Shown: positions 42,332-58,842 of the stretch, piece by piece | Layout: the number at the start of each line of letters is the position of its first letter | Position numbering within the stretch: position 1 is the stretch's first letter | DNA from: Acinetobacter phage vB_AbaM_14/CRR8 | Sequence record: PV611675.1 | Direction: 5' to 3' (one strand) | Length of the DNA stretch: 64,000 nucleotides | Notes under the pieces: model-generated | Told to the model about the DNA's origin: nothing | Seen by the model: only the letters and a program-made list of their open reading frames with translations | The model's database searches: none | Made by a program: the position numbers and the translations under genes

Positions 42332-42332
42332 T

Positions 42333-42551
42333 ATGAAGATACTGAAGGATTTCTGGATTATATTCGTTGTTGTAGCAATCTTTATTAGCTTGCTTGTAGA
42401 TAATCTCAGTAAAGCTAATGCAAGTAAACCTACATCAACAACATACCCTCCAGTGGTTGCACCATTAAGTTGGGACATGGTGAAGAAAGAATGTAAACTG
42501 AAAATTAAGAAGGATCAGAAGCTACCTAAGCACTGTTATAAACTTGTGTAG
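42333..42551 (+). CDS. small secreted/membrane-anchored protein
   Basis: N-terminal signal-anchor helix, Lys-rich C-terminus with two Cys. Confidence 0.3.
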   Translation: MKILKDFWIIFVVVAIFISLLVDNLSKANASKPTSTTYPPVVAPLSWDMVKKECKLKIKKDQKLPKHCYKLV

Positions 42552-42712
42552 GAGATTACCTTGAAGCTTAAGTATCTTGCAGTAGGTGTTATACTTTTAG
42601 TAGTTGTATACAGAAAATCATTAAAAGATTTTGATGAAATTCTTATTGGAAGTGCTTGACACAATATAGGGCCATGTATTATCATGGCTTTATTCATTTA
42701 GAGGAGAAAAAC

Positions 42713-43354: not shown

Positions 43355-43893
43355 TGAAATTCTACCACAAGAAAACTGTAGGTGATATTAACAAAAGAAT
43401 CTCGGAGTTAAAGCAAGAGATTCGTGAAGCTGAGGAAAAAGTTCAGCTTGTTATTAAAGATCACCTTAGAGCTGGATGTAAGACATTTCCAGAGGTTGTA
43501 GAACTCTCTAAAGAACTTGGCTGTAGTTTTGAATATGTAGTCGATGGACTTGGGCCAAAAAGAAAGTATTCACTATGGTCTAACTTAATGTGGGTGGAGG
43601 TCAAGTCTGGTCATGATGGTTTGATACTTAAATTAGAAAATGTAGGGATTTTGGAAAAGACTTACTATTACTGTAATAATTATGGTGGGCAAGATTTATG
43701 TATCGGTGATGAGGAGGCTATGAAATCCTTTGAGTGTGAGGATGGAATTTGGGCTTGTCCGATCAAGGGTGAGGAGATTAGTAAAGAAGAATTTGATGAA
43801 AATCTTTACCCAATGTTCTCTACTACTGATAAATATCATAACATCTGGAAGAAATTATCTGAAGGCATTGACAACTTACTGGTGTTCCAATAA
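43354..43893 (+). CDS. hypothetical protein
   Basis: 179-aa ORF, ATGA-coupled. Confidence 0.35.
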   Translation: MKFYHKKTVGDINKRISELKQEIREAEEKVQLVIKDHLRAGCKTFPEVVELSKELGCSFEYVVDGLGPKRKYSLWSNLMWVEVKSGHDGLILKLENVGILEKTYYYCNNYGGQDLCIGDEEAMKSFECEDGIWACPIKGEEISKEEFDENLYPMFSTTDKYHNIWKKLSEGIDNLLVFQ

Positions 43894-43898
43894 AATCG

Positions 43899-43930
43899 AG
43901 GGTGTGGCTTAGGCTGCACCCTTTTTATTT
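43899..43930 (+). terminator. rho-independent terminator (UUAG loop family)
   Basis: GGGTGTGGC-TTAG-GCTGCACCC then T5ATTT. Confidence 0.5.
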
Positions 43931-43944
43931 GTCTGGAGGAAAGT

Positions 43945-44142
43945 ATGTCTAAAACTATTAGCCCTACCTTCACCTGTGAATGTGGTGGACGTGTTACATC
44001 ACACTGGGTTATGGGGACTAGGGAGGATATCAGGACAAGCCAAGATTATGCTCGTGGTAAGAGACGATGGAAGCTTGTTAGTAACGGTTACTGGAGTATG
44101 GGTTGCAATAGTTGTGATTACAGGGGGAAATATACACCATGA
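43945..44142 (+). CDS. small Zn-ribbon protein
   Basis: CECGG...CNSCDY four-Cys motif. Confidence 0.35.
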   Translation: MSKTISPTFTCECGGRVTSHWVMGTREDIRTSQDYARGKRRWKLVSNGYWSMGCNSCDYRGKYTP

Positions 44143-44408
44143 GCGCTAAAGATTATATTGAAAATGTACTGGCATATCCTGATGACAGTAATGTGAAGTC
44201 TGACCTATTGTACTTTAAAGAATTTCAAGACTTCTTGTTTGAGTTATACTACTCAGAGCATTTTGACTGCCTTATAAAGTTCGTTGGTGGAACAACCTTT
44301 ATGGAGCAAGATGGTGGATGGACATTCTATTCATCTAGTGAATCAGCTATGCGTACATTAAGATGGAAGGGTAGACTGATAAGTGTTAAAAAGTATTTGA
44401 CAGAGTAA
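44139..44408 (+). CDS. hypothetical protein
   Basis: ATGA-coupled ORF. Confidence 0.3.
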   Translation: MSAKDYIENVLAYPDDSNVKSDLLYFKEFQDFLFELYYSEHFDCLIKFVGGTTFMEQDGGWTFYSSSESAMRTLRWKGRLISVKKYLTE

Positions 44409-44452
44409 TACTTTAATTATATTATACCTTTAAATTAACTGAGGTGAAGTGT

Positions 44453-44713
44453 ATGTTGGTAGTTAGTCGAAGAACTGCAATATTTATTAATACAGTCGCT
44501 AATTGGGCTTTTATTAATTACAATTATGATCGTAATGCACTGAAGGATTTTCAGGGTAGGCTTAGAGATAGAGTTAACCTATCAAAATTAGTTAGTGATG
44601 TATCTTTAGGTGATGACTGTGATTGTCTTGTTTCGATAGATGATGCAGACACACCTTTAGTTGAAAGTATTCTTAAAAGTTTCAAGGAGCGTAATCGTGG
44701 AAGTAATTCGTAA
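44453..44713 (+). CDS. hypothetical protein
   Basis: ATG after GAGGTG. Confidence 0.3.
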   Translation: MLVVSRRTAIFINTVANWAFINYNYDRNALKDFQGRLRDRVNLSKLVSDVSLGDDCDCLVSIDDADTPLVESILKSFKERNRGSNS

Positions 44714-45605
44714 TAAGGTGGTAGAACAATATACTTGGGCTGGTCAGAAAATTGAATTGACTATTAAGAAATATAAGCCGATTGTTTTCCATAAAAATTT
44801 GTGGGACCAATACCCTTCAGCTATCAAAGCGCGTGGTGCTGTATATCATGGTGATGAACAAGTGGTATATCCTATGGACAAGTGTTTCAACTACCTTGAG
44901 AATGGTTGTGGAAAAGATATCGAGGGTGATCACTATGTTATGTGGTATCGTAAAGTAAATGGCTTTATGGTGAACCTTACATACCATGAAGCTCTTGGTT
45001 GGATCATTTCAACTACAGGTGATGCTATCATCTTTGGCAATGTGACAGAGAATAAATACATCAATATGGCTTTGCAGTATATTGAAAAGTATGATGGCTT
45101 TGGTTTGTATGAACAGTTAAAGGGTGACTATTGCTTCTTTGATGACGATCAATTTACGGTGACGTTTGAAGTTGTCCATGAGAATGATCCACACATCGTA
45201 ACTGAAGTGACTGGACTATACCCATTATGTGTGCAAAAGAATGGTGTAACAATACCATTAAATGTCTCTCTTCAGGAGGATGGTAGTGGTGAGTTTGATG
45301 ATTTGAAAGAAGCTTTGAAGGTATGTAGACATGAAGGCTTTATGGTCTACAATGGTGCTGGTGAGCTTCTATTTAAGATGAAGTCTCCATATTACCTTGC
45401 TAAGAAATGGGTACAGCGTGGAGGAGCTAAGCGAGTTTGGAGTAATGACTATAAAGAACGTTTGGATGAAGAGTATTACCCAATCATTGATTACTTACGA
45501 TCACATCATGACAAGGAAGAGTGGGATAAGATGACAGAAGAGGCAAAGTCTATTGCATTCTTGGATGCTTACTACTTTGTAAATAACTTTAGTAGGGAGG
45601 GATAA
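44697..45605 (+). CDS. ligase-family nucleotidyltransferase (RNA ligase-like, KxNG motif)
   Basis: Covalent nucleotidyltransferase motifs: I RKVNGF, IV EGFMVY, V LFKMKSP, with canonical spacing; GTG start 6 nt after AAGGAG. Confidence 0.35.
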   Translation: MEVIRNKVVEQYTWAGQKIELTIKKYKPIVFHKNLWDQYPSAIKARGAVYHGDEQVVYPMDKCFNYLENGCGKDIEGDHYVMWYRKVNGFMVNLTYHEALGWIISTTGDAIIFGNVTENKYINMALQYIEKYDGFGLYEQLKGDYCFFDDDQFTVTFEVVHENDPHIVTEVTGLYPLCVQKNGVTIPLNVSLQEDGSGEFDDLKEALKVCRHEGFMVYNGAGELLFKMKSPYYLAKKWVQRGGAKRVWSNDYKERLDEEYYPIIDYLRSHHDKEEWDKMTEEAKSIAFLDAYYFVNNFSREG

Positions 45606-46162
45606 TGGGTGTAGTAACACACGGCATGAGTGGGACTCCATTGTACCAATGTTGGAAGAATATGAAGGCTAGGTGTTATAGAAAGTCATCTACTCACTTC
45701 CATAGGTATGGTGGTAGGGGTATTAAGGTCTGTGATGAGTGGAAATTTTCATTCATCACATTTATGGATTGGGCATATAAAAGTGGCTACTCTGAGGATT
45801 TAACTATTGATAGGGTAGATGTTGATAAGGACTATACACCTGATAATTGTAGATGGATTAGACCTGATGAAAATGTATCAAGAGCTAACTTTTACCATAA
45901 GGAGTTAGGAACTGGATGTCAATCGGATACATCTAAGATGAAAATGAGGGAAACCATTGTTGATTTACAAGGCATGAAGGTTGAACTTTATTTTGGTTTG
46001 AAATTGATTGGTGTGTATGATTCAATAGGTCTAGCTTCTGATTATGTTGCTGAAGCCCTTGGAAGGAAGAAAAAGAATGTCTACTCTCAGATGAAACAAC
46101 AAATGAAAGGTAAGGTTAAAACTACTGGTGGCTATACTGTGGAGGAATTTTTAGATGAGTAA
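45605..46162 (+). CDS. HNH-type endonuclease / AP2-like DNA-binding protein
   Basis: N-terminal motif TPLYQCWKNMKARC...YGGRGIKVCDEW typical of free-standing phage HNH/AP2-type proteins. Confidence 0.35.
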   Translation: MGVVTHGMSGTPLYQCWKNMKARCYRKSSTHFHRYGGRGIKVCDEWKFSFITFMDWAYKSGYSEDLTIDRVDVDKDYTPDNCRWIRPDENVSRANFYHKELGTGCQSDTSKMKMRETIVDLQGMKVELYFGLKLIGVYDSIGLASDYVAEALGRKKKNVYSQMKQQMKGKVKTTGGYTVEEFLDE

Positions 46163-46568
46163 TAAAATACTTTGGTTTATTAGGGGTGTGTCGGGTTCTG
46201 GAAAGAGTACCGTAGCAAAAGTGTTACGGGAACAGCTACCATTTGGTTGTGGAACTGAGGCTGATGACTTTCGTTATATCGATGGTCGGTATGCATGGGA
46301 GGAGGTCCCAAATTATATTGCACACCGTAAATGTTTTGATACTACAAAAGAATTCTTGACAGATGGTCGTCAAAATGTGGTAGTATCTAATACATCGACA
46401 AGAAGCAAAGATGTTCGCAAGTATAAGAAGCTTGCAGAAGAATTTGGGTATATGTTTATATCTATTGTGGTTGAGAATTACCATGAGACAGGTAATACAC
46501 ATAATGTACCATATGCTACACTTGTTGATATGGAAAATAAACTACGTGGTAGTATTAAATTAAAGTGA
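46155..46568 (+). CDS. polynucleotide 5'-kinase (T4 Pnk kinase-domain-like)
   Basis: Walker A GVSGSGKST; collinear similarity to T4 Pnk kinase domain (DDFRY, VVVSNT, RKYKKLAEEFGY, NVPYATLVDM). Confidence 0.6.
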   Translation: MSNKILWFIRGVSGSGKSTVAKVLREQLPFGCGTEADDFRYIDGRYAWEEVPNYIAHRKCFDTTKEFLTDGRQNVVVSNTSTRSKDVRKYKKLAEEFGYMFISIVVENYHETGNTHNVPYATLVDMENKLRGSIKLK

Positions 46569-46575
46569 GGTATTT

Positions 46576-46764
46576 GTGAAAATTTTACTAAATGGGTTGG
46601 AATGGGACTCTGAGGTACATAAAAATTTAATTAAAAAATTGGGTGGTGTCAAGGTTATTGAAGGTAAAATAAAAGAACCTCTTTTAGCAGGGGAGGCTCA
46701 CTACTATAAAATGATCTTGCATGTAAAGGAAACTTTTGAAGCTCATAACGTAGGATTTAAATAA
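46576..46764 (+). CDS. hypothetical protein
   Basis: 62-aa ORF. Confidence 0.25.
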   Translation: MKILLNGLEWDSEVHKNLIKKLGGVKVIEGKIKEPLLAGEAHYYKMILHVKETFEAHNVGFK

Positions 46765-47390
46765 TGGCTAAGTTATCTACAAGTGATTTACATTTTGGAC
46801 ATGTAAATATTTTAAAGTTCACCAAGCGTTACCATTTTATGTTTGACGATTCAACTTTTAAAAATCAATATTTTATTGATTCGGATGTATTTGAAAGAAT
46901 GCATAACGGAACTCTGACTTATTCTGACAAGGTGTTGATTAAAGAGAAGCATGATAATTGGTTGATCGAAAGGTTGAATAGCCAAATTGACAATGGTGAT
47001 GTGGTTTATCATGTAGGGGATTTTGCATTCTATAAGGATGTAAAGTCTATTCGCAATATCATTATGCAGTTGGCTGGAGATTGGATTTTTGTACTAGGTA
47101 ATCATGATAATGAATCTACATTACGTGAAGCTTGTAAGGGTACTCGTCATAAGGTGGTAGGTTATTACCATATGACTCGTGTCAATCGTAAGCGTGTGAT
47201 TTTCTGCCATTTTCCTTTTGAAGAGTGGGATCAATGCCATAATGGTTCATGGCATGTCTATGGACATTTACATGGTTCTGATGGTCATGGGGAGTTCAAG
47301 ATGAGAAAGGACTTGCCACGTCGATTTGATACTGGCATTGATGCACATAAAGAATGTAAGCTTTTCAACTTAGATGAGGTGATTCAGTGA
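46764..47390 (+). CDS. calcineurin-like metallophosphoesterase
   Basis: DLHFGH (DxH), GDFAFY (GDxx) and LGNHDNE (GNHD/E) motifs. Confidence 0.6.
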   Translation: MAKLSTSDLHFGHVNILKFTKRYHFMFDDSTFKNQYFIDSDVFERMHNGTLTYSDKVLIKEKHDNWLIERLNSQIDNGDVVYHVGDFAFYKDVKSIRNIIMQLAGDWIFVLGNHDNESTLREACKGTRHKVVGYYHMTRVNRKRVIFCHFPFEEWDQCHNGSWHVYGHLHGSDGHGEFKMRKDLPRRFDTGIDAHKECKLFNLDEVIQ

Positions 47391-47566
47391 GTTTATTTAC
47401 AGTAGGTAATGATGTTGGTCTAGCTGCTGACCATTTAAATTTCGCTATCGAGACTTTGGAAGATTGTGATATTGATGGCGAGGCTATGGATTCATTACGT
47501 GAGGCACAGCAACGATTAGACCAAGCTATGGCTGAGATTGCTGTATTAAGGGAAAAGTACCCATGA
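47387..47566 (+). CDS. hypothetical small protein
   Basis: GTGA/ATGA-coupled 59-aa ORF below the track cutoff. Confidence 0.25.
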   Translation: MSLFTVGNDVGLAADHLNFAIETLEDCDIDGEAMDSLREAQQRLDQAMAEIAVLREKYP

Positions 47567-47832
47567 TGCTGCATGGCAGAAAGACTACATATAAGGATTC
47601 GGTCCAACGACTGCTTAATTGTGGAGCCAACCTTGAAGAAATGATGATAGAGATGCTTGAGTTTGAGAGTACTCTATCTGCTGGTCTAAAGGAACGTCAC
47701 TGGACAGCCTCATTTCACGTAGGAGGTGAGTTAAAGTCTTTGACTGTAGTACCAGAGGGAACGGAGCTTTCATTCCGTGTGCAGGATTTGGCGAAGTATA
47801 GGGTGTTGTTAACACCAGAGGAGTTGAGATAG
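47563..47832 (+). CDS. hypothetical protein
   Basis: 89-aa ORF. Confidence 0.3.
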   Translation: MMLHGRKTTYKDSVQRLLNCGANLEEMMIEMLEFESTLSAGLKERHWTASFHVGGELKSLTVVPEGTELSFRVQDLAKYRVLLTPEELR

Positions 47833-48065
47833 TGCCTATATGTATTGGAGGACCATTCCATGATAAACATGCTAATTGTGGTGATTACATTTATACTATA
47901 ATGGGTACTAGGAAGCTTGTAGAATATCGGCTAAGAGATTACTGTTATGACGATGGTTCTATTAAAAAGATTCAACTTTACCAGCATGTGTCCCTTTCAG
48001 ATGAATGTATCATTCAATTCCTAAATGAAAAATTTAATTTAAACCCTGTTGAGAAAAAGTCTTGA
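47832..48065 (+). CDS. hypothetical Cys-containing protein
   Basis: 77-aa ORF. Confidence 0.3.
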   Translation: MPICIGGPFHDKHANCGDYIYTIMGTRKLVEYRLRDYCYDDGSIKKIQLYQHVSLSDECIIQFLNEKFNLNPVEKKS

Positions 48066-48089
48066 CAGGGTTTTTCTTTGCCTGTAATA
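48043..48089 (+). promoter_or_regulatory. overlapping terminator/promoter element
   Basis: Hairpin CCCTGT-tgagaaaaagtct-TGACAGGG then T-run; the 3' arm contains -35 TTGACA; 17 bp; -10 TAATAT. Confidence 0.45.
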
Positions 48090-48123
48090 TTCACTTCACT
48101 TCATAGACAACTAGGAGCTGGAA

Positions 48124-48669
48124 ATGAAAGCAAGACGTGAGTTAGAGTTAAAAGTTTGGAATCTTTCTGAAGAGGAAGTTTTAAATAAAACACTATTTGA
48201 TTTGCTTGGTAAAGAAGAAATTGTAAGATGCTTCCATGAAGCATTTAAAAAGCTTGGCGTACTACAACGTTATGATGAGTTTTATCTGAAGAAAATTGGT
48301 AATCGTAAGGTTAATAACTATATCTCAACGTTACGTGAATTAGATGGTCAAGTTGGAACTCGACTCTACAAAGTTGAGCACAATGCATTCATGACAGGTT
48401 TGTTACGTGAAGCTGGCATAATCGATGGTGTTTATTTCGCAGCTCTGTATCCAAACTTCATGAAGAAGATTATTACTTCTGCACAAAGCCATATGGGTTT
48501 AATTGAGGGTGATACAGGAAATGGTAAAGATCATTTAATCTATGTACTTAAGGGTGTTAGTGGTCTTGCAACTACAGAGCAATCTAAGTTGTTGGGCATT
48601 TCAATGGGTCATTGGGAAGGTGGTCGAGAGAAAGTTACTGGACTTAAACGTCGAAAAGATCGTAAATAA
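48124..48669 (+). CDS. hypothetical protein
   Basis: 181-aa ORF with GGAGCTGG RBS. Confidence 0.35.
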   Translation: MKARRELELKVWNLSEEEVLNKTLFDLLGKEEIVRCFHEAFKKLGVLQRYDEFYLKKIGNRKVNNYISTLRELDGQVGTRLYKVEHNAFMTGLLREAGIIDGVYFAALYPNFMKKIITSAQSHMGLIEGDTGNGKDHLIYVLKGVSGLATTEQSKLLGISMGHWEGGREKVTGLKRRKDRK

Positions 48670-48672
48670 TTG

Positions 48673-48701
48673 TTGACACAGATTTAATTTTTAATTATAT
48701 T
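48673..48701 (+). promoter_or_regulatory. sigma70-like promoter
   Basis: TTGACA, 17 bp, TATATT. Confidence 0.4.
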
Positions 48702-48730
48702 TAATGCACAAACTAACTGGAGTAAAGGAA

Positions 48731-48871
48731 ATGTCTAAATTCACTAAACCGTCACAAGATAAAGATCAGTTCGAATCTTATCATGATGAGCGAAAGCAAC
48801 GTGGTCGTAAGCGACATGACGGTGGTAAGAAAGTGAAATCTTCAACTAAATGGTATGATCGGATGAACTAA
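48731..48871 (+). CDS. small basic protein
   Basis: 46-aa Lys/Arg-rich ORF downstream of promoter. Confidence 0.25.
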   Translation: MSKFTKPSQDKDQFESYHDERKQRGRKRHDGGKKVKSSTKWYDRMN

Positions 48872-48872
48872 T

Positions 48873-49391
48873 ATGAAAGGATTTATTAAAGAAGGTTCGT
48901 TAGAAGAAGCCAACAAAATCTTGATGTGTTACCAAGATGTTTTGAAGGCAATGGATAAAATCCAAAAGGGTGAAGAGCCACCGCCTTGGTTTAATACTAG
49001 GGTTGGTACTTGTATCAATGTTGAGTTAGCAGCTTTTGCAAACTATGGTATTAATTTAAACAATCTAGATGATTGGCAGAGAAGTGTTGTACATCCAGAT
49101 CAAGATATTTGTATAGGTGAGTCGAAACTCGATTATATTCTTAACAAAGCTTGGATTGATTTTGTAAACACTATGGGTAATACTGTAGGGTATGTTGAAC
49201 CTAACTCAAGTAATGTTTACCCTATCATCCGTGAATATCCAGAATATACAGCTGCATATTCATATGCCAATAGTGTTGCATATGGAACTCTTTACAAAGG
49301 CAAACAGTTAGAGGCTCGTGTAAGTTTAGTGAACTTCAAGTGTCAAGTACTACGAGAAGAGTTACTGAACATTTGGAAATTAAGTAAGTAA
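48873..49391 (+). CDS. hypothetical protein
   Basis: 172-aa ORF. Confidence 0.35.
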   Translation: MKGFIKEGSLEEANKILMCYQDVLKAMDKIQKGEEPPPWFNTRVGTCINVELAAFANYGINLNNLDDWQRSVVHPDQDICIGESKLDYILNKAWIDFVNTMGNTVGYVEPNSSNVYPIIREYPEYTAAYSYANSVAYGTLYKGKQLEARVSLVNFKCQVLREELLNIWKLSK

Positions 49392-49406
49392 TTTGAGGAT
49401 TAAAAT

Positions 49407-50510
49407 ATGAAATTTATCAAGTACCCAAGCATTAAACGTTTAACTGAACGTGCAATCAATAATGTGAAGGAAATGCCATTTGAATTACCACAATTTATGG
49501 TAACTGAGAAACTTCATGGGGCCAATATGGGTATCTACTCTAATGGTGAAGAGTTTAAGATTGCATCTCGTGAAGGTTTTGTCCGTGAAGGTATCAAGTT
49601 CTACAATGGTCGTGCTGTAGCTGATCGATACAAAGATGGTATCATGGAACATGCCAAACACTCTGTTAAATCTGCTCGTGAGATTGGCATCATTGGTGAT
49701 GTAGTAAGTATCTACTTTGGTGAACTGTTTGGTGGGAGTATCCATAAAGGTACACCATACTCTCAAGAGCAAGATTTTGTTTTGTTTGACTTCTTCATGA
49801 CATTTGAAAACTCTGAAGAGAACCTTAAAGCATTAAAGCTATTTGGTGTTAAAGATTTTATTGTATATGAGGAGCAAGGAGTTATTGCTTGTCGTAGTTA
49901 CGATAAACCTAGTTCATTGAAATACATCTCCGAGTTTATTGGTTGTCGACATATTGAGATTTTATTTATTGGCTCATTTGAAGATGCTTTAAAAGTTGAG
50001 AACAACTTTAAATCTAAGTATGTGTGTCCTGAAAAGGTTAAGGAGTCTGGCGTTGCTGCTCATGGTCAAGATGCAGTAGACTACCTATGCATTACTGAAG
50101 GTGTAATCATTGAACCAGTGAACCCAATGAATCATTTTGGTGACATGCTTAAATACAAATCTAAGAACTCTAAGTTTGAAGAGAAGTATAATACAGGTTA
50201 TAAAGAGAAAATTTCTGCTGTTGAGAAGGCTCTCAATAAATTAACAGATGAAGAACGTGATACATTGACTGATATGGATCAATACATTACTAACCCTCGT
50301 TACGATGCTGTGGTGAGTAAGATTGGTGAAGTAACCATCAAAGATTTTTCAAAAGTTTTGAAAGCTTTTGTTGAAGACGTATTAGCTGACATTAAAGAAG
50401 ATTATCAAGAGTATCGTGAGTGCTTCCCTGATCTTAGTAAAGATGCTATGATGTTATTCACAAATGAAGTTAAAGCGTTTATTCGCCCTAAATTATTGGA
50501 GAACAGTTAA
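49407..50510 (+). CDS. RNA ligase (Rnl2-like, KxHGxN motif)
   Basis: Motif I KLHGAN, motif IV EGVIIEP, motif V LKYKSKN. Confidence 0.55.
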   Translation: MKFIKYPSIKRLTERAINNVKEMPFELPQFMVTEKLHGANMGIYSNGEEFKIASREGFVREGIKFYNGRAVADRYKDGIMEHAKHSVKSAREIGIIGDVVSIYFGELFGGSIHKGTPYSQEQDFVLFDFFMTFENSEENLKALKLFGVKDFIVYEEQGVIACRSYDKPSSLKYISEFIGCRHIEILFIGSFEDALKVENNFKSKYVCPEKVKESGVAAHGQDAVDYLCITEGVIIEPVNPMNHFGDMLKYKSKNSKFEEKYNTGYKEKISAVEKALNKLTDEERDTLTDMDQYITNPRYDAVVSKIGEVTIKDFSKVLKAFVEDVLADIKEDYQEYRECFPDLSKDAMMLFTNEVKAFIRPKLLENS

Positions 50511-51478
50511 TGTCCATTTTACGAGTTAAAAACTTCCTTGAACTGCATGTAGTTGGCAAGGGGCAGATTAAAGTAGATGTGGTGGAATTTGGGGACGGCA
50601 CTAAAAGTGTCCGTATCCCTACTATTAAGTGTTACGACCGAGAGACCACTTTCCGTATTGAGTTATTTCAGCGTAGTATGGATGACATCATGCTTGTTGC
50701 ACAAATTGTAGATATCATTCGTCGTAATACACGTACAATTGTGAACATCATCTTAAGCTTAGAGTCACCAATGTATATGCGTTATGATCGTGTGATGAAT
50801 GATAAGAAGGATGATGCCTTTGCACTAAAACAGTTTGTGAAAATGATTCTGGCGACAGGTGTCAATCATGTACAGTTGACAGACCCTCACAGTGAAGTGG
50901 CTGAGGAGTTGTTATTCCTACATGGCTCTGGTCGAAACTTTGTAAGTGTTACACGTCAAGAAGATTGTGTGTATGAGGCTCTACGAACATTCACAGAAGG
51001 ACATAAAAACCTAGGGCATTATGATATTGTACTACCTGATGCTGGAGCAGCTAAGAAAGTTCTTGGTTATGAAACTTTCCAATGTATGAAAGCTCGTGAC
51101 CCTAACACTGGTAAGTTGTCTAAAGCTGGGTTTGATATTGATCCTAATGTATTAACTAAGTTGTTATTGAGTAAGAAAGATAGAATCATTATTGTTGACG
51201 ACATCTGCGAGAACGGTGGAACCTTCTTAGGATGCCATAAAATGCTCAGAGAGCGTGGTGTTATAAAACCTATGGATTTGTACATCACACATGGCGTATT
51301 CCCTAATGTGCAAGCAATGAGTAAGTTCTATGGGGTGTTTGAGAATATCTACATATACAATGGAACAAATGCAAAGTATCTTGACCTTGTATCCCATACA
51401 GGAGCTAAGATTCATATGGTAAATGCTTTTGTGGGAGCTGATGAATTAGTTTTCGAAGATGACCTATTTAAGTCTTGA
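50510..51478 (+). CDS. prs: ribose-phosphate pyrophosphokinase (PRPP synthetase)
   Basis: PRPP-binding loop IIIVDDICENGGTF; size 322 aa. Confidence 0.65.
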   Translation: MSILRVKNFLELHVVGKGQIKVDVVEFGDGTKSVRIPTIKCYDRETTFRIELFQRSMDDIMLVAQIVDIIRRNTRTIVNIILSLESPMYMRYDRVMNDKKDDAFALKQFVKMILATGVNHVQLTDPHSEVAEELLFLHGSGRNFVSVTRQEDCVYEALRTFTEGHKNLGHYDIVLPDAGAAKKVLGYETFQCMKARDPNTGKLSKAGFDIDPNVLTKLLLSKKDRIIIVDDICENGGTFLGCHKMLRERGVIKPMDLYITHGVFPNVQAMSKFYGVFENIYIYNGTNAKYLDLVSHTGAKIHMVNAFVGADELVFEDDLFKS

Positions 51479-51504
51479 CATCTATACAATAGTGGGGTTA
51501 TAAT
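51475..51504 (+). promoter_or_regulatory. sigma70-like promoter
   Basis: TTGACA, 18 bp, TATAAT. Confidence 0.45.
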
Positions 51505-51531
51505 GGCCCCACAAACTTTTAGAGGTGTGCT

Positions 51532-51759
51532 ATGAGAAAAGCTCGTATTAAAGCTACAAAACAACAAATGGTTGATATGGGTATCGACGGTGTGGTTGTT
51601 AATGGAGAGGTAATTAAAGATGGTACAATTCTAGACATTAAAGAATTGCAAATCAACTTTGAGGGTAAGCCAGCATTTCAGTTTATTGGATCATATAATG
51701 GGTTAATAGACCATACATGGTACATCTCGGCTGAGCTATTTGAATTTATTGAGGGTTAA
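51532..51759 (+). CDS. hypothetical protein
   Basis: 75-aa ORF. Confidence 0.3.
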   Translation: MRKARIKATKQQMVDMGIDGVVVNGEVIKDGTILDIKELQINFEGKPAFQFIGSYNGLIDHTWYISAELFEFIEG

Positions 51760-51762
51760 TTT

Positions 51763-53607
51763 ATGAATTTTTTAGAAAAGAAAGCCTTATTAGAGGAATC
51801 AATCTTTGACGCAGTGCCAAAGGTGAATCCTTTCTTATATTGGACAGACTCTTACAAAGATTCTCATATTCGTTTTGAAGTTGAGGGTGTTAAGTATATT
51901 TATTCTAATGCCACAGCACGTTTTGGTTACTACATGAAAAACCTTCTGGGTGAATACTTTGAAGATGAGTTCGTTGTTTTTGGTATTCAGTGGATGTTGG
52001 CACGTTTTCATGCTATGGCTAAGATCGGATTCTTTGATCGTCCTAAGCAAGAAGTATTGGATGAAATGTTAGAGGTACTTGGACCTTACATTGGTGAAAC
52101 GGATGTAACTCGTTTTGGTGATCTCCATGATCTTGGTTATGTACCATTGATCTTTAAAGCATTACCAGAAGGTACAGTTGCACCTATTGGTACTCCATTC
52201 TATACATGTGAGAATACATTACCTGAATTTGAATGGCTTGCAAATTTCCTTGAGTCTGGTATGTCTACAGATACTTGGAAACAGTTAACAGTAGCTACTG
52301 TAGCTTATGCTTTCCGTCGAATCAGTAACAAGTTCGCTTTAGAGACTCAAGGAAATATCGAGGGTACAGAGTGGCAAAACCATGACTTCTCAACACGTGG
52401 TCAATCTGGATTTGAGTCTGGTGCAATTAATGGTGTAGCATTCTTGCTTAGCTCTTGTGGCACAGACAATAAGCCATCATTGTGGGCAGCTCGTGACTTC
52501 TATTTGAGTAAGAATACCCAAGACTTATTGTTGTGTGGTTCTGTACCTGCTGGGGAACATAGTGTTTCTACATTAGGTATTCAATCATTCATTAAGAAAG
52601 CTGAACTTGCTGGTGAGGAACTATCGTTACTTGAGGCTGAAATTAAATATGCTAAGTTTGTTATTACAGAACGTTTCCCTACAGGTATCTTATCTTATGT
52701 GTCGGATTCGTATGATTACTGGGGATTCATTAAAGAAGTTCTTCCAGCTCTTAAAGAAGATATTCTTGCACGTGATGGTAAACTTGTTGTGCGTGGCGAT
52801 TCAGGTGATCCTATTCATATTATCGCTGGTTATCGTATCTTTGATGCTGATACAGATGTACGTGTTAAGGGTAAGTTTAATTCAGTATCTCAGTTGATGT
52901 TGAACACACACTTATGGTGGGATTCTAAGTGGGAGGTCATCAAATTCAATGATCAATATTTCTTGATCATTGATAGTGGTACAGAACTTCAAGAGATTTC
53001 ACGTGAAGAAGCTCATGGAACTATCCAATGTTTATGGGATGAGTTTGGTGGTATTGTAAATGATCTTGGATTTAAACACTTAGATAGTCATATCGGCATG
53101 ATCTATGGTGATGGAATTACAATCCAACGTTCAGTAGAAATCTTGACTCGATTAAAGGACAAAGGTTTTGCATCTACAAATATCGTATTTGGTGTAGGTA
53201 GTTACTCATTGAATATGTTATCTCGTGACCATCTTGGTATTGCCATTAAAGCAACCAATGCAATCATTGAGATTGATGAACGTCTCGTTGAGATGCCTAT
53301 CTACAAGGACCCTAAGACTGATACGAGTAAGAAGTCTGCTAAAGGTTATTTGGTGGTGTCTGCTGATAAGGAAGGGAATATCATTACTTTGGATGAACAG
53401 AGTCGTGAAGCAGCTTTACATACTGGTTTACTTGAAACTGTATATATGAATGGGCAATTCCAAGTCTTAACTACAGTACCAGAGATTCGAGAGCGTCTAT
53501 GGAATCCTAAATCTTTAGCTCCTCCAACTGTAGAGGAGGGTGAGGAAGTGATTGTAAATGATATCACACCAGAAGTTGACGGTGAGTCAGAGGAGTTTGT
53601 AGAGTAA
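51763..53607 (+). CDS. nadV: nicotinamide phosphoribosyltransferase (NAMPT/NadV), extended form
   Basis: TDSYK motif near the N-terminus and overall NAPRTase-family features; adjacent to prs; 614 aa, longer than typical. Confidence 0.7.
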   Translation: MNFLEKKALLEESIFDAVPKVNPFLYWTDSYKDSHIRFEVEGVKYIYSNATARFGYYMKNLLGEYFEDEFVVFGIQWMLARFHAMAKIGFFDRPKQEVLDEMLEVLGPYIGETDVTRFGDLHDLGYVPLIFKALPEGTVAPIGTPFYTCENTLPEFEWLANFLESGMSTDTWKQLTVATVAYAFRRISNKFALETQGNIEGTEWQNHDFSTRGQSGFESGAINGVAFLLSSCGTDNKPSLWAARDFYLSKNTQDLLLCGSVPAGEHSVSTLGIQSFIKKAELAGEELSLLEAEIKYAKFVITERFPTGILSYVSDSYDYWGFIKEVLPALKEDILARDGKLVVRGDSGDPIHIIAGYRIFDADTDVRVKGKFNSVSQLMLNTHLWWDSKWEVIKFNDQYFLIIDSGTELQEISREEAHGTIQCLWDEFGGIVNDLGFKHLDSHIGMIYGDGITIQRSVEILTRLKDKGFASTNIVFGVGSYSLNMLSRDHLGIAIKATNAIIEIDERLVEMPIYKDPKTDTSKKSAKGYLVVSADKEGNIITLDEQSREAALHTGLLETVYMNGQFQVLTTVPEIRERLWNPKSLAPPTVEEGEEVIVNDITPEVDGESEEFVE

Positions 53608-54080
53608 TGATTGAGGAACGCATCAAAGGTGATGTGTTCCCTTACCTTATGAAGAAGGATAACAATTTTGACGCATTTGTTCATGGTTGTAATTGCTTCT
53701 GTACTATGGGTAAGGGGATAGCTCCACTAGTCAAAAAGCATTTCTATGCTGCTTATGAGGCTGATTTACTCACAGAGAAAGGTGATCGGAGTAAGCTTGG
53801 TGATTATACATGGGCTTGGTTTAATGAGTATAAACTTGAAATTATCAATGCTTACACTCAATACGATTACAGAAAAGCTTATGGTGATACAGATATCAAT
53901 GTCAGTTATCATGCTATTCGGGAAGTGTTTAGAAAGCTTAACAAGGACTATCGAGGGTGTCGATTCGCTATACCTAAGATCGGTGCTGGTTTGGCTGGAG
54001 GTGATTGGGAGTTGATTGAGAAGATCATCAATGAAGAGACACCACACTTACACATTACATTATTTTATTTAGAGGATTAA
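53607..54080 (+). CDS. macro domain protein (ADP-ribose binding/processing)
   Basis: Macro-domain motifs AFVHGCNCFCTMGKGIA and IPKIGAGLAGGDW. Confidence 0.55.
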   Translation: MIEERIKGDVFPYLMKKDNNFDAFVHGCNCFCTMGKGIAPLVKKHFYAAYEADLLTEKGDRSKLGDYTWAWFNEYKLEIINAYTQYDYRKAYGDTDINVSYHAIREVFRKLNKDYRGCRFAIPKIGAGLAGGDWELIEKIINEETPHLHITLFYLED

Positions 54081-54082
54081 TT

Positions 54083-54343
54083 ATGAAATTTAATATTAAA
54101 GGCGTACAACCTCTTGTACAATCAAATAAGTTCCCTGCTTTAGTGCAAAGTATTCCACAAGAAGGCGATAATCCAGAAGATGTATTTATTATTTGGGCTT
54201 TGGACAAGAGTCAAGGTGTCATTGTAAAGAACACTGAAGAGCCTGATTCTGAAGGTGAACTTGAAGATGGTTATGACTTTACAGACTCTAAGGCTTGGGT
54301 CCGATTACCAGTTGGAACAGTGCTAGAAATTACTCAAGAATAA
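54083..54343 (+). CDS. hypothetical acidic protein
   Basis: 86-aa ORF. Confidence 0.3.
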   Translation: MKFNIKGVQPLVQSNKFPALVQSIPQEGDNPEDVFIIWALDKSQGVIVKNTEEPDSEGELEDGYDFTDSKAWVRLPVGTVLEITQE

Positions 54344-54356
54344 AATATTTAAATTA

Positions 54357-54384
54357 AGGGTGAGCTTAGGCTTGCCCTTTTTTA
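54357..54384 (+). terminator. rho-independent terminator (UUAG loop family)
   Basis: GGGTGAGC-TTAG-GCTTGCCC then T6. Confidence 0.5.
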
Positions 54385-54433
54385 TTGCTTGTAGTATTAT
54401 AAGATCATTAGTTAACCAACGAGAGATCGTCTA

Positions 54434-54967
54434 ATGAAAGTTTATCGTATTGAGCATCCAGAAACAGGGCATGGAATTTTCCGTACAGATTGGGAAGATA
54501 TTCGACATAATGGATTCTTGTCAAATTTACCTGACAACCTTATATGGTCTTATCATGATGCATTTAAACGAGTTAAAGCTTGTAACTGTAGTGTTAAACA
54601 TGATACTCCAACAGGTGAGTCTACAGGCAAACAATATGCTATAGCTATGGCTATTCTGTACGGAGACACTGAGTCTATACAAGCTAAAAAACATTTAACA
54701 GAGCAAGAAAGATCAATAATTAGAGAAGATTATTCAAGTGGTAAGAGGGCTTTATGTGCAGCTCCTAGTATTGAAGTTATGTCTGATTGGATTGAATTGG
54801 AAGCAATACAATTCTTACAAATGACTGGCTTCAAATTGTATGAAATAGATTTAAAAGTACGTAAGTCAATCCATTATGTATCAGACACACAAGTAGTATT
54901 CTTTCCAAGAACTGTTAAAAGTAAGAAAGAAATTTGCTTATCTCGTTTAGCATCTAGAGGAGTTTAA
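54434..54967 (+). CDS. hypothetical protein
   Basis: 177-aa ORF. Confidence 0.35.
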   Translation: MKVYRIEHPETGHGIFRTDWEDIRHNGFLSNLPDNLIWSYHDAFKRVKACNCSVKHDTPTGESTGKQYAIAMAILYGDTESIQAKKHLTEQERSIIREDYSSGKRALCAAPSIEVMSDWIELEAIQFLQMTGFKLYEIDLKVRKSIHYVSDTQVVFFPRTVKSKKEICLSRLASRGV

Positions 54968-54971
54968 TATT

Positions 54972-55673
54972 ATGAAATTAGTTAACGATTTAATCATGAA
55001 TAAGATTGAAAAAGAGTTCGATGTACGCAACATTGAATTACCTTACGATGTTACATCTGAGGTTTTTCACTGGACCCATGAATACCTAGGTAAAGGTATG
55101 ACTCCAGAGCAAGTAGCAGACAAATTATTTGAAGAGATTTTCTCTTATAAGAATTATGATGTTGGTAAATTTGTTTATCTGGATACAGAGAAACGTGAAA
55201 CCACACATGGTTGGGTATTATCTCCTGAAGGTGTGATGTATCATACTCGATATGAATATTGTCATGGCCTAGCTATTGCAGCCTTATGTCCTGTTGAAGC
55301 ATTAAAACACAAATTTATTGCACCTCCAATGTTTAGCAAGTATGAATGTATTCATCGAAACAGTTACCAAGATTTTGGATTCATTGCTACAAGAGAGTAT
55401 GGTTGGATTCGATTTGATCAATCGTTTAACATCCTACGTATAGATTTCTATATGGAAAATGTTACTCAGGCCCAAATTGATACAATGAAAGATTGGTTTA
55501 AATATCATGATTTGCTTGACAGAAAATGTGAAACATATTACACTCACTCAAACATTAGAAAGGTGTTAGATCAAATGCAACGTGAAGTATCAGAGCGTAA
55601 GCTTGGTAAGCCACCTGAAGAGATGATTTTAATCGAACCTGACGAAAATGGTTTTGGTTTAGGTTCACTATAG
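54972..55673 (+). CDS. hypothetical protein
   Basis: 233-aa ORF. Confidence 0.35.
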   Translation: MKLVNDLIMNKIEKEFDVRNIELPYDVTSEVFHWTHEYLGKGMTPEQVADKLFEEIFSYKNYDVGKFVYLDTEKRETTHGWVLSPEGVMYHTRYEYCHGLAIAALCPVEALKHKFIAPPMFSKYECIHRNSYQDFGFIATREYGWIRFDQSFNILRIDFYMENVTQAQIDTMKDWFKYHDLLDRKCETYYTHSNIRKVLDQMQREVSERKLGKPPEEMILIEPDENGFGLGSL

Positions 55674-55684
55674 AGGATAAATAA

Positions 55685-56173
55685 ATGTACATATTTCCAA
55701 GTCAAGTATTCTTTTACCCGAACAATTTATTCTTAGATTCAATAAATGAACTTGATGGTCATATAATTGAGATGGGCTGTGGTGTGGGTCATACTCTGGC
55801 TAGAATGAAAGAGTATGGTGGGGCGGTAGATAACTGCAATATGTTTAACTCACGTGGGTTTGATATTGTAGCTAGAACTGAATGTGAGGCACCTACCCAA
55901 GTGGCTTATGGTTATATGTTTGACGCTTTAGAATTTAAGTTCTACACTAAGCTTATGAACGTATTGGTATGCCGTCCTGATCATGGAGGTTGGGTCGGAA
56001 CTTTGTTGGACAAGTTCTTGAGTGGTGAGAAAACTTGTAAGCGATTCATCTATGTAGGATTAGAACGTAACTTGACTATAGATTTTGATCCTATACAATT
56101 AGATGCATTATCTCAAGTCATAGAGAATGTTGGTGATGACGGGGAGAATATGTACATTTGGGAGATTTCCTGA
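55685..56173 (+). CDS. small protein with SAM-methyltransferase-like motif I
   Basis: IIEMGCGVGHTLARM resembles class I MTase E/DxGxGxG; 162 aa. Confidence 0.3.
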   Translation: MYIFPSQVFFYPNNLFLDSINELDGHIIEMGCGVGHTLARMKEYGGAVDNCNMFNSRGFDIVARTECEAPTQVAYGYMFDALEFKFYTKLMNVLVCRPDHGGWVGTLLDKFLSGEKTCKRFIYVGLERNLTIDFDPIQLDALSQVIENVGDDGENMYIWEIS

Positions 56174-56379
56174 TGGATACTATGATTGAATATTTCTTTC
56201 ACGGTTTACTGGTGGCTGTAGTATTATACTACGCCATCAAGATGACATTGTTCATGATCCAAGCTCAAATAGATTCTTATAAATTTCAGAAGAATCTGAA
56301 GGAGACTGAGCGAAAACAGGCAGAGTATGAAAACTCTATTGAATGTAAACTAATAAACAAGTATCTCTCGGAGAAATAA
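56173..56379 (+). CDS. small membrane protein
   Basis: One TM helix; ATGA overlap; GGAG RBS. Confidence 0.3.
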   Translation: MDTMIEYFFHGLLVAVVLYYAIKMTLFMIQAQIDSYKFQKNLKETERKQAEYENSIECKLINKYLSEK

Positions 56380-56380
56380 C

Positions 56381-57058
56381 ATGGATTTTACAGGTGGACA
56401 AATAGCATTTATAGTACTGTTTTCTTTTTCAATATTCTTACTTCTTGTTTGGCATGACAAGTATCGGAGGAAGAAGTTATCTGAAATTGAGCAGACAACA
56501 TGGGAGCCTTGGATGGAGTACGATAATGGTACTCCAGATGGTGATGACAGTGAAGATGTATACTATTCACTCCGTGAGAAATTTGTTGAAAACTATCAGT
56601 GGGCAAGTAAAATATTTGGTGTGCATTGGTGTCTTATTGGAAATGATGCTGTAGATACCATATTACATGACCGTGAGAAATTTAACTACAAGGCTTGTTA
56701 CTATATCTTCAGATGGCCTCAACACCTCCCAACGTGTTTTAGGATTTCAGAATTTACACACAAAGTTACGGATGATGCTAAATCTACGTATGCTTGTAGA
56801 GGTGCTGAACTCTTCATGAAGGAGTTTAATGAAAAGGTTGATAGGTTAAGAACTTATGCTGAAGATAACAGGTTGTCAATCAAATATGGTTTAGATGACG
56901 AGTTCCCAGTAGAAGCTATTGTAAATTGTATTAGAGAGTGTACTATTAACAGTAAGCATACATACGATACCTGTTTTAAAGTTCATTCGGAATTATTACC
57001 AAAACTTTTGAGGAAAGAGAAGTGGAAGAAAATAGTGAACGGTTCGGAATGGGATTGA
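56381..57058 (+). CDS. membrane-anchored protein
   Basis: N-terminal TM helix then basic stretch and soluble Cys-containing domain. Confidence 0.35.
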   Translation: MDFTGGQIAFIVLFSFSIFLLLVWHDKYRRKKLSEIEQTTWEPWMEYDNGTPDGDDSEDVYYSLREKFVENYQWASKIFGVHWCLIGNDAVDTILHDREKFNYKACYYIFRWPQHLPTCFRISEFTHKVTDDAKSTYACRGAELFMKEFNEKVDRLRTYAEDNRLSIKYGLDDEFPVEAIVNCIRECTINSKHTYDTCFKVHSELLPKLLRKEKWKKIVNGSEWD

Positions 57059-58083
57059 GTTTAAGTAAAGGTCCCTTATCTTCGGAAGAGAATTACTCGG
57101 AGCGTATTAGGAGAAGTCGTGAAAGGTTGAGAGATTCTGTGGCTGCATCTGATGAGTATCTGATGTGGCGTGGTGATGGTAGAGGAGCACAAGCCATTAA
57201 CGCATTTGCAACTAAGGTGTTTAGTCAAGAACTAAATATTAAGGAAACTGCTGATGCGATAACTAAACTACAAAGGGATATGACAGAGAGACCTGCACCT
57301 ATACCACACCGAAACAGATATAAAGCTATACTTGCAGATAAACCATATGTGATGTATTTGCAAGGTTGTAAGTATGTAGTTCATCCAAATTTCATGCCTT
57401 ACAATGATTTAAGTTGCATTGATGATTTAAGCCTTGCTGCTGTACTTAGGGTATATGACAAGTATACAAACATCAAGCTTCAAGACTATGAAAGCATTGT
57501 CCCAGTAAAATTGGAAGTCTTAGATAAAACTATACTTGTTTGGGATAAGAGAGCTGATGTAGATAAGCTTGATATTTTCAAGCAAGTGATGGAGTTTAGT
57601 GATGACGACTTCGATACTTATGCAAAAAGGAAAGGTTGGAGGACACATCGTGATGATCGTGGTAAGATTATAGCCTTATCTAAACCTGATCCAGTTCGTG
57701 TTGGATTTCCTAGAAGATCGGGAATGTTTATGCATGGAATGATGGAGGACTGGGAAGATGATGTTGAGGAAGATATTGATGAGTGCTGGGAGTTTGAAAA
57801 TGAGGAATCGAAGGAGTATTCAGATTCGTACTCTGAAAGCAATGATGAACATCTTCTCCAAAAAATATATGAAAGGAAACTCGAAACTAGGTCAAAGAGA
57901 ATACCTCCATATTTGAAGGATGAGAGTATCGATATGTCTATGGCCGAAGCAATGAAGGCTAAACGTGATGGTAGGTTTGATGTTCGGACATTGTGTAATG
58001 GTACAACTATAAAGGTTGGTGAGCCAAAACTTTCAATGTCTGAAGAGATTGAACAGAGATTAATTGAAAAATATTTAACATAG
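57022..58083 (+). CDS. hypothetical protein
   Basis: 353-aa ORF, acidic regions. Confidence 0.35.
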   Translation: MEENSERFGMGLSLSKGPLSSEENYSERIRRSRERLRDSVAASDEYLMWRGDGRGAQAINAFATKVFSQELNIKETADAITKLQRDMTERPAPIPHRNRYKAILADKPYVMYLQGCKYVVHPNFMPYNDLSCIDDLSLAAVLRVYDKYTNIKLQDYESIVPVKLEVLDKTILVWDKRADVDKLDIFKQVMEFSDDDFDTYAKRKGWRTHRDDRGKIIALSKPDPVRVGFPRRSGMFMHGMMEDWEDDVEEDIDECWEFENEESKEYSDSYSESNDEHLLQKIYERKLETRSKRIPPYLKDESIDMSMAEAMKAKRDGRFDVRTLCNGTTIKVGEPKLSMSEEIEQRLIEKYLT

Positions 58084-58143: not shown

Positions 58144-58842
58144 ATGTCAAACTGGTTCTTAAAATTATTCACTATCGGTGTTAACAAGGTTAATGAAGCT
58201 GGTGAAAAAGCTGTAGAGAATTACATTGATATTCAGCGTGAAGGTAAAGCTGTGGTGGCAAATAAACGCAAAGCAATTGAACAGCGTAATGCTAAGGTTG
58301 TGAAGTCTCAGACATTCATCAAGCTTAAACAACAAGAGATTGAAGGTAAGAAGGCATCTCTTGATAAGATGAATCTTATTGCAGAGAAAGCTTTAGCTGC
58401 TGGTGAAGAGGCTGATGCACGTCAAGCTTTGGTACAGGCAGAACGATTGGAAGATGATATTACTGTTCTACAGGGTATTGTCGATGAGTTGCAACCTATT
58501 GTAGATGATTCAATCCAACAGATTGAAGAATACAAAATTGAAATTTCTCGAATTGAAAGTGAGATTGAGCGACTTGACCATATTTACGAAAGTATTAAAT
58601 ATCGTGAAGAGTTAGAGGGTGGCAACTTTGGTGCTGGTGGTGCATTCGATATGGATTCATTACGTAATCTTGTTAATAAAGCTAAAGCAACTTCTGAAGC
58701 TAAGGCTGAGATTAAAGAGAAGACTGGTGGAAACTTGGAGAAGAAATACAACAACATTAAGTCTGAATCTAAAGTTGATTCTCGCTTAGAAGAGCTTAAA
58801 CAAAAATTAGCTGCTGATAAACCAGCTAAGAAAAAAGCTTAA
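58144..58842 (+). CDS. PspA/IM30 (phage shock protein A / Vipp1)-like coiled-coil protein
   Basis: N-terminal amphipathic helix, long heptad-repeat coiled coil, length and architecture collinear with PspA. Confidence 0.45.
   Translation: MSNWFLKLFTIGVNKVNEAGEKAVENYIDIQREGKAVVANKRKAIEQRNAKVVKSQTFIKLKQQEIEGKKASLDKMNLIAEKALAAGEEADARQALVQAERLEDDITVLQGIVDELQPIVDDSIQQIEEYKIEISRIESEIERLDHIYESIKYREELEGGNFGAGGAFDMDSLRNLVNKAKATSEAKAEIKEKTGGNLEKKYNNIKSESKVDSRLEELKQKLAADKPAKKKA

Follow-up and report, generated by a model that had tools for sequence, protein, structure and literature searches.

A predicted NARP1-AP operon for the restoration of NAD+ in an Acinetobacter baumannii myophage

A stretch of 64,000 nucleotides from Acinetobacter phage vB_AbaM_14/CRR8 (PV611675.1; the whole stretch is called the window here) encodes a Prs-like, a NAMPT-like and a macro-domain protein close together on the plus strand. 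Computational analysis indicated that this locus is very likely an operon of the nicotinamide adenine dinucleotide (NAD+) reconstitution pathway 1 with an associated phosphatase (NARP1-AP). In this assignment, the three proteins would be an ADP-ribose (ADPR) pyrophosphokinase (Adps), a nicotinamide ADP-ribose transferase (Namat) and an ADPR-1''-phosphate (ADPR-1''P) phosphatase (Adpp). A preliminary description, made from the sequence alone, had read the locus as a salvage cassette of a phosphoribosyl pyrophosphate (PRPP) synthetase and a NadV-type NAMPT followed by a macro-domain protein. The list of open reading frames (ORFs) confirmed the positions of the three genes, and the motifs quoted were present too: the PRPP-binding-loop motif IIIVDDICENGGTF spans residues 226-239 in the Prs-like protein, and TDSYK spans residues 28-32 in the NAMPT-like one. 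The general idea of an NAD+-restoring counter-defense module, of which the macro-domain protein is a functional part, also stood, and the first two enzyme names had to be revised.

The window originates from a Saclayvirus-type A. baumannii myophage, and its positions 50000-54500 were about 98.7% identical in nucleotide comparison to Acinetobacter phage vB_AbaM_B09_Aci01-1 (MH800198). Since Table S1 of Osterman et al. (bioRxiv 10.64898/2026.01.28.702374) lists this near-identical operon (MH800198_00139, _00141 and _00142), and since the macro-domain sequence of the window is identical to the MH800198_00142 entry, the layout and the membership of the lineage are already published. The combination of Nampt and macro genes, which had been proposed to differ from published layouts, is the published NARP1-AP arrangement; the finding is real, not new.

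NARP1 consists of a Prs-like and a NAMPT-like gene without a gene for a nicotinamide mononucleotide (NMN) adenylyltransferase (NMNAT), and its chemistry and phenotypes were described by Osterman et al. (2024). The aRES system is a RES-domain defense that converts NAD+ and phosphate to nicotinamide and ADPR-1''P, which is unusable by NARP1 (bioRxiv 10.64898/2026.01.28.702374). According to the same study, 15% of NARP1 operons have a gene for a macro-domain protein no more than two genes away. In Vibrio phage Gary, the Poa1p-like Adpp dephosphorylates ADPR-1''P to ADPR, and the three-gene NARP1-AP overcomes aRES; mutations of Adps K192, Namat H243, and Adpp H24 and N27 inactivate this operon (bioRxiv 10.64898/2026.01.28.702374).

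Applied to the window, the pathway would proceed as follows. Host defense proteins (SIR2, TIR, SEFIR and similar) would cleave NAD+ to nicotinamide and ADPR. Adps would pyrophosphorylate the free ribose of ADPR with ATP to yield ADPR pyrophosphate (ADPR-PP), from which Namat would displace the pyrophosphate by nicotinamide, forming NAD+ in a single step that bypasses NMN and requires no NMNAT. The ADPR-1''P produced by an aRES-type NAD+ phosphorylase would be unusable by Adps, and removal of the phosphate by Adpp would return ADPR, thereby feeding Adps and Namat. The three catalytic activities and the anti-defense phenotype are inferred by homology to enzymes of 28-38% identity that were tested in other phages.

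Relationships of the three proteins

In profile searches, all three proteins found PHROG support: the Prs-like protein matched phrog_619 ('ribose-phosphate pyrophosphokinase', 3e-51), the NAMPT-like protein phrog_448 (1e-166) and the macro-domain protein phrog_335 ('phosphatase', 3.5e-51). The Pfam families suggested by the preliminary description were borne out for the NAMPT-like protein (NAPRTase, PF04095, 8e-27), whereas the Pfam matches of the Prs-like protein were weak and those of both the Prs-like and the macro-domain protein (PF01661, 2e-3) fell below the gathering scores.

First, the identification of the Prs-like protein as a PRPP synthetase was not upheld. With TIGR01251, the NCBIfam model of the Prs subfamily, it scored 50.5 bits, where the cut-off is 113 and where E. 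coli Prs reaches 423 bits and Gary Adps 100 bits, and the NCBIfam Prs equivalog models gave 20-45 bits against cut-offs of 296-536. In blastp, Bas63 Adps scored highest (83 bits, 33% identity), followed by the Adps of Gary (69 bits) and SPbetaL1 (59 bits) and by E. coli Prs (30 bits). The motifs DPHS (125-128), PDAGAAKK (176-183) and K194-x-R-x3-TG are shared with the Adps of Bas63, Gary and SPbetaL1; E. coli Prs has DLHA, PDIGGVVR and DKRRPRANVS at the same positions. K194 aligns to the essential lysine of these enzymes (SPbetaL1 K162, Gary K192). Because it lies far below the TIGR01251 cut-off and closer to characterized Adps enzymes than to E. coli Prs, the protein is, by the evidence here, not a PRPP synthetase but an Adps, which would convert ADPR and ATP to ADPR-PP. 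The near-identical MH800198_00139 is listed among the Adps homologs in Table S1 of Osterman et al. (2024). Placement in the Adps and Namat clades was made by pairwise scores and published tables.

Second, the NAMPT-like protein was compared with solved structures. The best matches were 9W5X and 9W5W (SPbetaL1 Namat, 335 bits), compared with about 165 bits for human and rodent Nampt, and on these scores the earlier assignment to an NMN-forming NadV-type enzyme was abandoned. When the nicotinamide/NMN site was mapped from the SPbetaL1 crystal structure, all 15 mapped residues were conserved (D29, Y31, F209, S210, R212, D235, A263, R344, D346, G449, D450, G479, S480, R488 and D489). H266 is the equivalent of the essential catalytic histidine (Gary H243). 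The clamp helix GSYSLNMLSRD (479-489) agrees with the published signature in part, namely in a length typical of Namat, in an aromatic residue (Tyr481) at the third position and in the R-D pair. Judged from its scores and its complete catalytic core, the 'NAMPT' of the window is a Namat that would form NAD+ from ADPR-PP and nicotinamide. A Namat homologue lies close to adps in 97% of the Adps clade, and the near-identical MH800198_00141 is listed as 'Adps-associated' (Osterman et al. 2024).

The protein had been described as about 120 amino acids (aa) longer than a typical NAMPT. As to length this was accurate (614 aa against about 491 aa for SPbetaL1 Namat or human Nampt), but it is no peculiarity of this phage because the main insertions are also present in Bas63 and Gary Namat; an 'extended NAMPT' was therefore rejected as a novelty. 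Most of the excess consists of two insertions, at about residues 272-291 and 357-417, that are common to Bas63 Namat (593 aa), and the larger one also occurs in Gary Namat (537 aa). What remains is accounted for by a short extension at the N-terminus and by an acidic C-terminal tail of 35 residues, WNPKSLAPPTVEEGEEVIVNDITPEVDGESEEFVE (residues 580-614; window 53500-53607), which the Namats of SPbetaL1, Bas63 and Gary all lack.

Two resources were set aside for the separation of Namat from Nampt. NCBIfam was non-discriminating, as window Namat (389 bits) and Gary Namat (418 bits) both matched the same Nampt-type model around its cut-off of 405, and the release used contained no models for Adps, Namat or Adpp. 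PDB entry 9KE8, the second-best Namat match, was considered as a reference for the Nampt of NARP2 and left unused: it is not a phage protein in the phage collection, where its best match was SPbetaL1 Namat (55% identity), and no paper citing it was found.

Third, the macro-domain protein was compared with the assayed Adpp of Gary, which it matched with 88 bits (E 2e-27). H26 and N29 are the equivalents of the essential Gary residues H24 and N27 and of H23 and N26 of Poa1p, and N29 was invariant across the 40 members of the family alignment. An AlphaFold model built from this 40-sequence alignment had a clear macro fold (pLDDT 91.3). The nearest solved folds found by Foldseek were BT1257, TARG1, Poa1p and DarG (E about 1e-9, TM 0.70-0.76, identity 17-23%), with Poa1p entry 6LFR at E 2e-9 and TM 0.71. 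By itself, the fold of the model leaves the choice between phosphatase and glycohydrolase chemistry undecided. Taken with its catalytic residues, the protein matches Adpp and would convert ADPR-1''P to ADPR and phosphate; the activity and the rescue from aRES were demonstrated for the Gary operon only. ADPR-1''P was among the substrates listed in the preliminary description, and it is the one shown for the homologous Gary enzyme.

Adpp-like macro genes far outnumber the NARP1-AP operons and were also observed in T4-like phages, beside a valyl-tRNA synthetase modifier gene, and in the KVP40-like phage ValKK3. They occur in phages without NARP1 and in NARP2-type phages, and the published model does not account for a role there, with no Adps or Namat to use the ADPR.

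Among the known systems, the locus resembles NARP1-AP of Gary in its three protein families, in the RNA ligase genes nearby and in the conservation of all four residues at which mutation inactivates the Gary operon (K194, H266, H26 and N29). It differs in gene order (Adps-Adpp-Namat in Gary, Adps-orf75-Namat-Adpp-orf86 in the window), in sequence (28-37% identity), in the promoter-like site after Adps, in two lineage-specific small ORFs and in a Namat that is 77 aa longer and has the acidic tail. With NARP1 of Bas63, SPbetaL1 and FADO it shares the pair of Prs-like and Nampt-like genes and the lack of a phage NMNAT, and Bas63 Namat has the same large mid-protein insertion; unlike the locus in the window, those operons have no adjacent macro gene. 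NARP2 of KVP40 (Nampt and a bifunctional Nmnat) likewise restores NAD+ against the same defenses with a Nampt-family enzyme and nicotinamide, but it does so from PRPP through NMN and a phage Nmnat, whereas the window has Adps and no Nmnat was found. Poa1p, TARG1/OARD1 and DarG belong to the same macro-fold subclass as Adpp. The His-x-x-Asn of Poa1p is kept as H26/N29, while S30 and F152 of Poa1p are replaced by Thr33 and Ala130. A functional parallel is RyDEP, an RyR-domain glycosidase encoded next to NARP1 of mycobacteriophage DyoEdafos, which turns another NAD+ derivative (2'/3'cADPR) into ADPR for NARP1, although its fold and its substrate differ from those of Adpp.

Alternative readings

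Several observations weigh against the assignment of the locus to NARP1-AP. The identities to tested enzymes are low, with 28-33% for Adps, 37-38% for Namat (to Bas63 and Gary) and 36% for Adpp (to Gary). The clamp helix of Namat departs from the published consensus: Met485 occupies the adenine-stacking aromatic position (SPbetaL1 Y396), where SPbetaL1, Bas63 and Gary Namat all have Tyr, and Ser487 replaces Thr. The clamp loop (beta1-beta2), which in Namat contributes a stacking Arg, Lys or Tyr (Lan et al. 2026), exceeds that of SPbetaL1 by 7 residues; Y56, Y57 and K59 fall within it, in a region of ambiguous alignment. Adps, moreover, seems to lie in a transcription unit separate from Namat and Adpp. 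Finally, TARG1 and DarG are as good matches to the Adpp fold as Poa1p is, the best NCBIfam match of Adpp is DarG (36 bits against a cut-off of 250), and Adpp-like macro genes are present in about 2,780 phage records, many without NARP1, so that the family is not solely a NARP1 accessory.

The clamp was read as a variant and not as a disqualification, because single clamp mutations in SPbetaL1 Namat reduced activity just 1.3- to 1.7-fold (Lan et al. 2026). As a lesser possibility, the Met-containing helix and the acidic tail could change the substrate preference of the window Namat.

The three observations on Adpp would suit a macro-domain protein that acts independently of Adps and Namat, either in TARG1/DarG-like de-ADP-ribosylation (e.g., against DarT-type DNA ADP-ribosylation) or in the processing of ADP-ribose 1''-phosphate (Appr-1''-p) together with RNA-repair genes. 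The roughly 2,800 records include T4-like phages without NARP1, and Rnl2 and a cluster of Rnl1, kinase and phosphoesterase genes lie just upstream of the locus; the Gary operon, too, has RNA ligase genes on its flanks. Yeast Poa1p itself acts in the clearance of a tRNA-splicing by-product (bioRxiv 10.64898/2026.01.28.702374). Such an independent role is nevertheless improbable. The gene is translationally coupled to Namat, macro genes recur at most two genes away from NARP1 in 15% of the phages that have it, across unrelated lineages and in differing orders, and no Tpt1/KptA-type source of Appr>p was among the phage annotations. The DarG score is far below its cut-off, and the His and Asn required for Gary Adpp are conserved.

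The residues of the active site point in the same direction. In an HMMER alignment to M. tuberculosis DarG, Gln85 lies at the position of the catalytic lysine of DarG and TARG1 (PTK vs YTQ; K84 in TARG1), and Ala130 is aligned to the catalytic D125 of TARG1. Gln85 and Ala130 were both invariant in the 40-sequence alignment. Because the catalytic Lys and Asp of TARG1/DarG are replaced in this way, the Adpp residues argue against TARG1/DarG-type de-ADP-ribosylation. The sequences that served for this mapping carry the cited residues at the cited positions (K84 and D125 in TARG1; H23, S30 and F152 in Poa1p); Poa1p H23 and S30 are also named in PDB entry titles, and part of the TARG1 sequence agreed with a printed alignment.

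The classical salvage route, in which the Prs-like protein would make PRPP, the NAMPT-like protein would make NMN and host NadR or NadD would complete NAD+, is highly improbable. It agrees with the Pfam and PHROG names, and Osterman et al. (2024) also began from this Pfam-based expectation and then disproved it. In vitro, Namat enzymes do still form NMN from PRPP, reaching about half of what human Nampt achieves, and the loss of one of the two aromatic clamp residues in the window Namat could weaken the preference for ADPR-PP. However, Namat joins ADPR-PP and nicotinamide to NAD+, and when PRPP was offered too, only NAD+ was made (Osterman et al. 2024). In the PRPP-synthetase control, the purified Adps of SPbetaL1 formed no product, yet it pyrophosphorylated ADPR to ADPR-PP (Osterman et al. 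2024). The score on the Prs model and the grouping with Adps speak against PRPP synthesis in the window as well, and a route based on PRPP leaves a linked ADPR-1''P phosphatase without a function. The last step, which had been left to a host NMNAT, would not be required either, as Namat makes NAD+ directly and Bas63 NARP1 remained effective against SIR2-HerA when the host lacked both pncC and nadR (Osterman et al. 2024).

In addition, a phage Nmnat accompanies 94% of true phage Nampt genes (Osterman et al. 2024), and none was found here, in agreement with the preliminary description, which had noted that an NMNAT gene elsewhere would make the locus a canonical NARP2. The GxFxPxHxGH signature was absent from the window ORFs of at least 120 aa, and no cytidylyltransferase domain was detected in the 16 window ORFs scanned (41642-58083). 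In the complete genome of the 98% identical relative PQ859668 (104 kb), no NMNAT, NadR, NadD or PnuC was annotated, and none of its 20 unannotated proteins of at least 137 aa had a cytidylyltransferase domain. Since Namat makes NAD+ directly, the missing NMNAT is explained: very probably none is needed, and a host enzyme need not be invoked.

Three further candidates were excluded: NARP2 (Nampt and Nmnat), since no phage NMN adenylyltransferase was found in the window or PQ859668; NARP3, a PnuC-type transporter with a NadR-like kinase/adenylyltransferase (PMC13464706), since its genes are different and gave no annotation or Pfam match in PQ859668 or the window; and a RyDEP-type accessory, since the operon genes and their immediate neighbors had no Pfam match to a RyDEP/RyR domain.

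Gene order, transcription and neighboring genes

The ORF list and the profile searches gave the order of genes on the plus strand from Rnl2 to a terminator-like hairpin (Table 1). The start of Adps overlaps the stop of Rnl2 (TAATG, 50508-50512). Rnl2 and Adps are translationally coupled, and Rnl2 is context, outside the NAD+ pathway. The overlap between the NAMPT stop and the macro start, pointed out in the preliminary description, was verified as 1 base (TAATG, 53605-53609), and the Adpp start is translationally coupled to the Namat stop. Namat itself begins 285 bp 3' of Adps, and a single 75-aa ORF (orf75), not mentioned in the preliminary description, lies in between. At the other end, orf86 starts 2 nt past the Adpp stop.

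Table 1. Positions of the features of the predicted operon in the window, with the evidence on which each was named.
Feature	Position	Strand	Evidence
RNA ligase 2 (Rnl2-type)	49407..50510	+	PF09414 + PF18043 (1e-13), phrog_548 (1e-55)
Adps (putative ADP-ribose pyrophosphokinase, Prs-like), 322 aa	50510..51478	+	phrog_619, blastp, motifs
Promoter-like site TTGACA-N18-TATAAT	51475..51504	+	consensus match only
orf75, 75-aa orphan between Adps and Namat	51532..51759	+	ORF list
Namat (putative nicotinamide ADP-ribose transferase, Nampt-like), 614 aa	51763..53607	+	PF04095, phrog_448, PDB matches
Adpp (putative Poa1p-like macro-domain ADPR-1''-phosphate phosphatase), 157 aa	53607..54080	+	phrog_335, fold model, Gary homology
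orf86, 86-aa acidic orphan, final gene ahead of the terminator-like hairpin	54083..54343	+	ORF list
Intrinsic-terminator-like hairpin, 10-bp stem, 5 G-C pairs, then TTTTTATT	54356..54379	+	

The promoter-like site is the sole perfect sigma-70 consensus in the 64-kb window; its -35 element shares bases with the stop codon of Adps. One such match was found where 0.19 were expected per window, and 18 of 100 shuffles gave at least one; the match is suggestive, not proof. The site probably drives orf75-Namat-Adpp-orf86. These four genes each have a GAGG-type ribosome-binding site (GAGGA for orf86), and the strong terminator-like hairpin would close the transcription unit. Namat and Adpp thus probably have their own host-recognized promoter, which would suit early counter-defense expression. 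The arms of a 6-bp inverted repeat (GTGGGG...CCCCAC, window 51475-51515) flank the -10 element, and this repeat could serve as an operator or form a stem in the 5' part of the RNA.

The two small ORFs appear to be specific to Acinetobacter phages. By tblastn, orf75 was found in 15 phage records, all from Acinetobacter, and orf86 likewise in 15 Acinetobacter phage records. In phage vB_AbaM_P1, where the position of the match could be compared, a 29% identical version of orf75 lies directly 5' of Namat as well. In a database of 5.8 billion proteins, orf75 formed one cluster. Neither orf75 nor orf86 had a Pfam, PHROG or NCBIfam match. The AlphaFold model of orf75 was weak (pLDDT 68, with the five models disagreeing), and a Foldseek comparison with viral structures returned its own homologue only and no fold match. 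By analogy with Adpp, RyDEP and aRad1, the two ORFs could be undescribed NARP1 accessories, e.g., a feeder that handles a further NAD+-derived product, or a protein that binds or inhibits an Acinetobacter NADase effector, although this is doubtful. Identity of either ORF with aRad1, a small anti-aRES inhibitor, was rejected, as a by-eye comparison with the aRad1a sequence gave no visible similarity.

A set of RNA-repair-like genes is located just 5' of the operon (44661-47390, plus Rnl2 at 49407-50510). It includes an Rnl1-like ligase, named from the annotation of a relative and without a Pfam match, an AAA_33 kinase-like ATPase (46155-46568) and a Metallophos_2 phosphoesterase (46764-47390). 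The NARP1-AP operons of Vibrio phages Gary and BBMuffin are also flanked by two RNA ligase genes, and the co-location thus recurs in unrelated phages. Between the Rnl1-like and the kinase-like gene, the window has an ORF of 185 aa (45605-46162) with no Pfam match. In PQ859668, the kinase-like gene directly follows the ligase, and this ORF may be an insertion that varies among close relatives. Further downstream, the PQ859668 equivalent of window 58144-58842 (232 aa) gave a full-length, sub-threshold match to PspA/IM30 (PF04012, 8e-7, 29 vs 33.9 bits); this assignment would mean a membrane-stress-type protein, which is unusual in a phage.

Meaning for Acinetobacter phages

No new question is opened by the locus, as the pathway, its logic and the membership of the lineage are already published. 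Its use lies, first, in annotation. In A. baumannii myophages, the entries 'ribose-phosphate pyrophosphokinase', 'nicotinamide phosphoribosyltransferase' and 'phosphatase' or 'hypothetical' would be corrected to Adps, Namat and Adpp. Second, both classes of target defense exist in the host genus, because aRES homologues are present in Acinetobacter genomes (Table S2, bioRxiv 10.64898/2026.01.28.702374) and a Sir2-HerA NADase system from A. baumannii has already served in experiments. It is predicted that phages with this operon resist ADPR-producing NADase defenses (e.g., A. baumannii Sir2-HerA) as well as aRES-type defenses. Several such phages belong to a group studied for therapy, and the predicted resistance would be useful for the choice or the engineering of phages.

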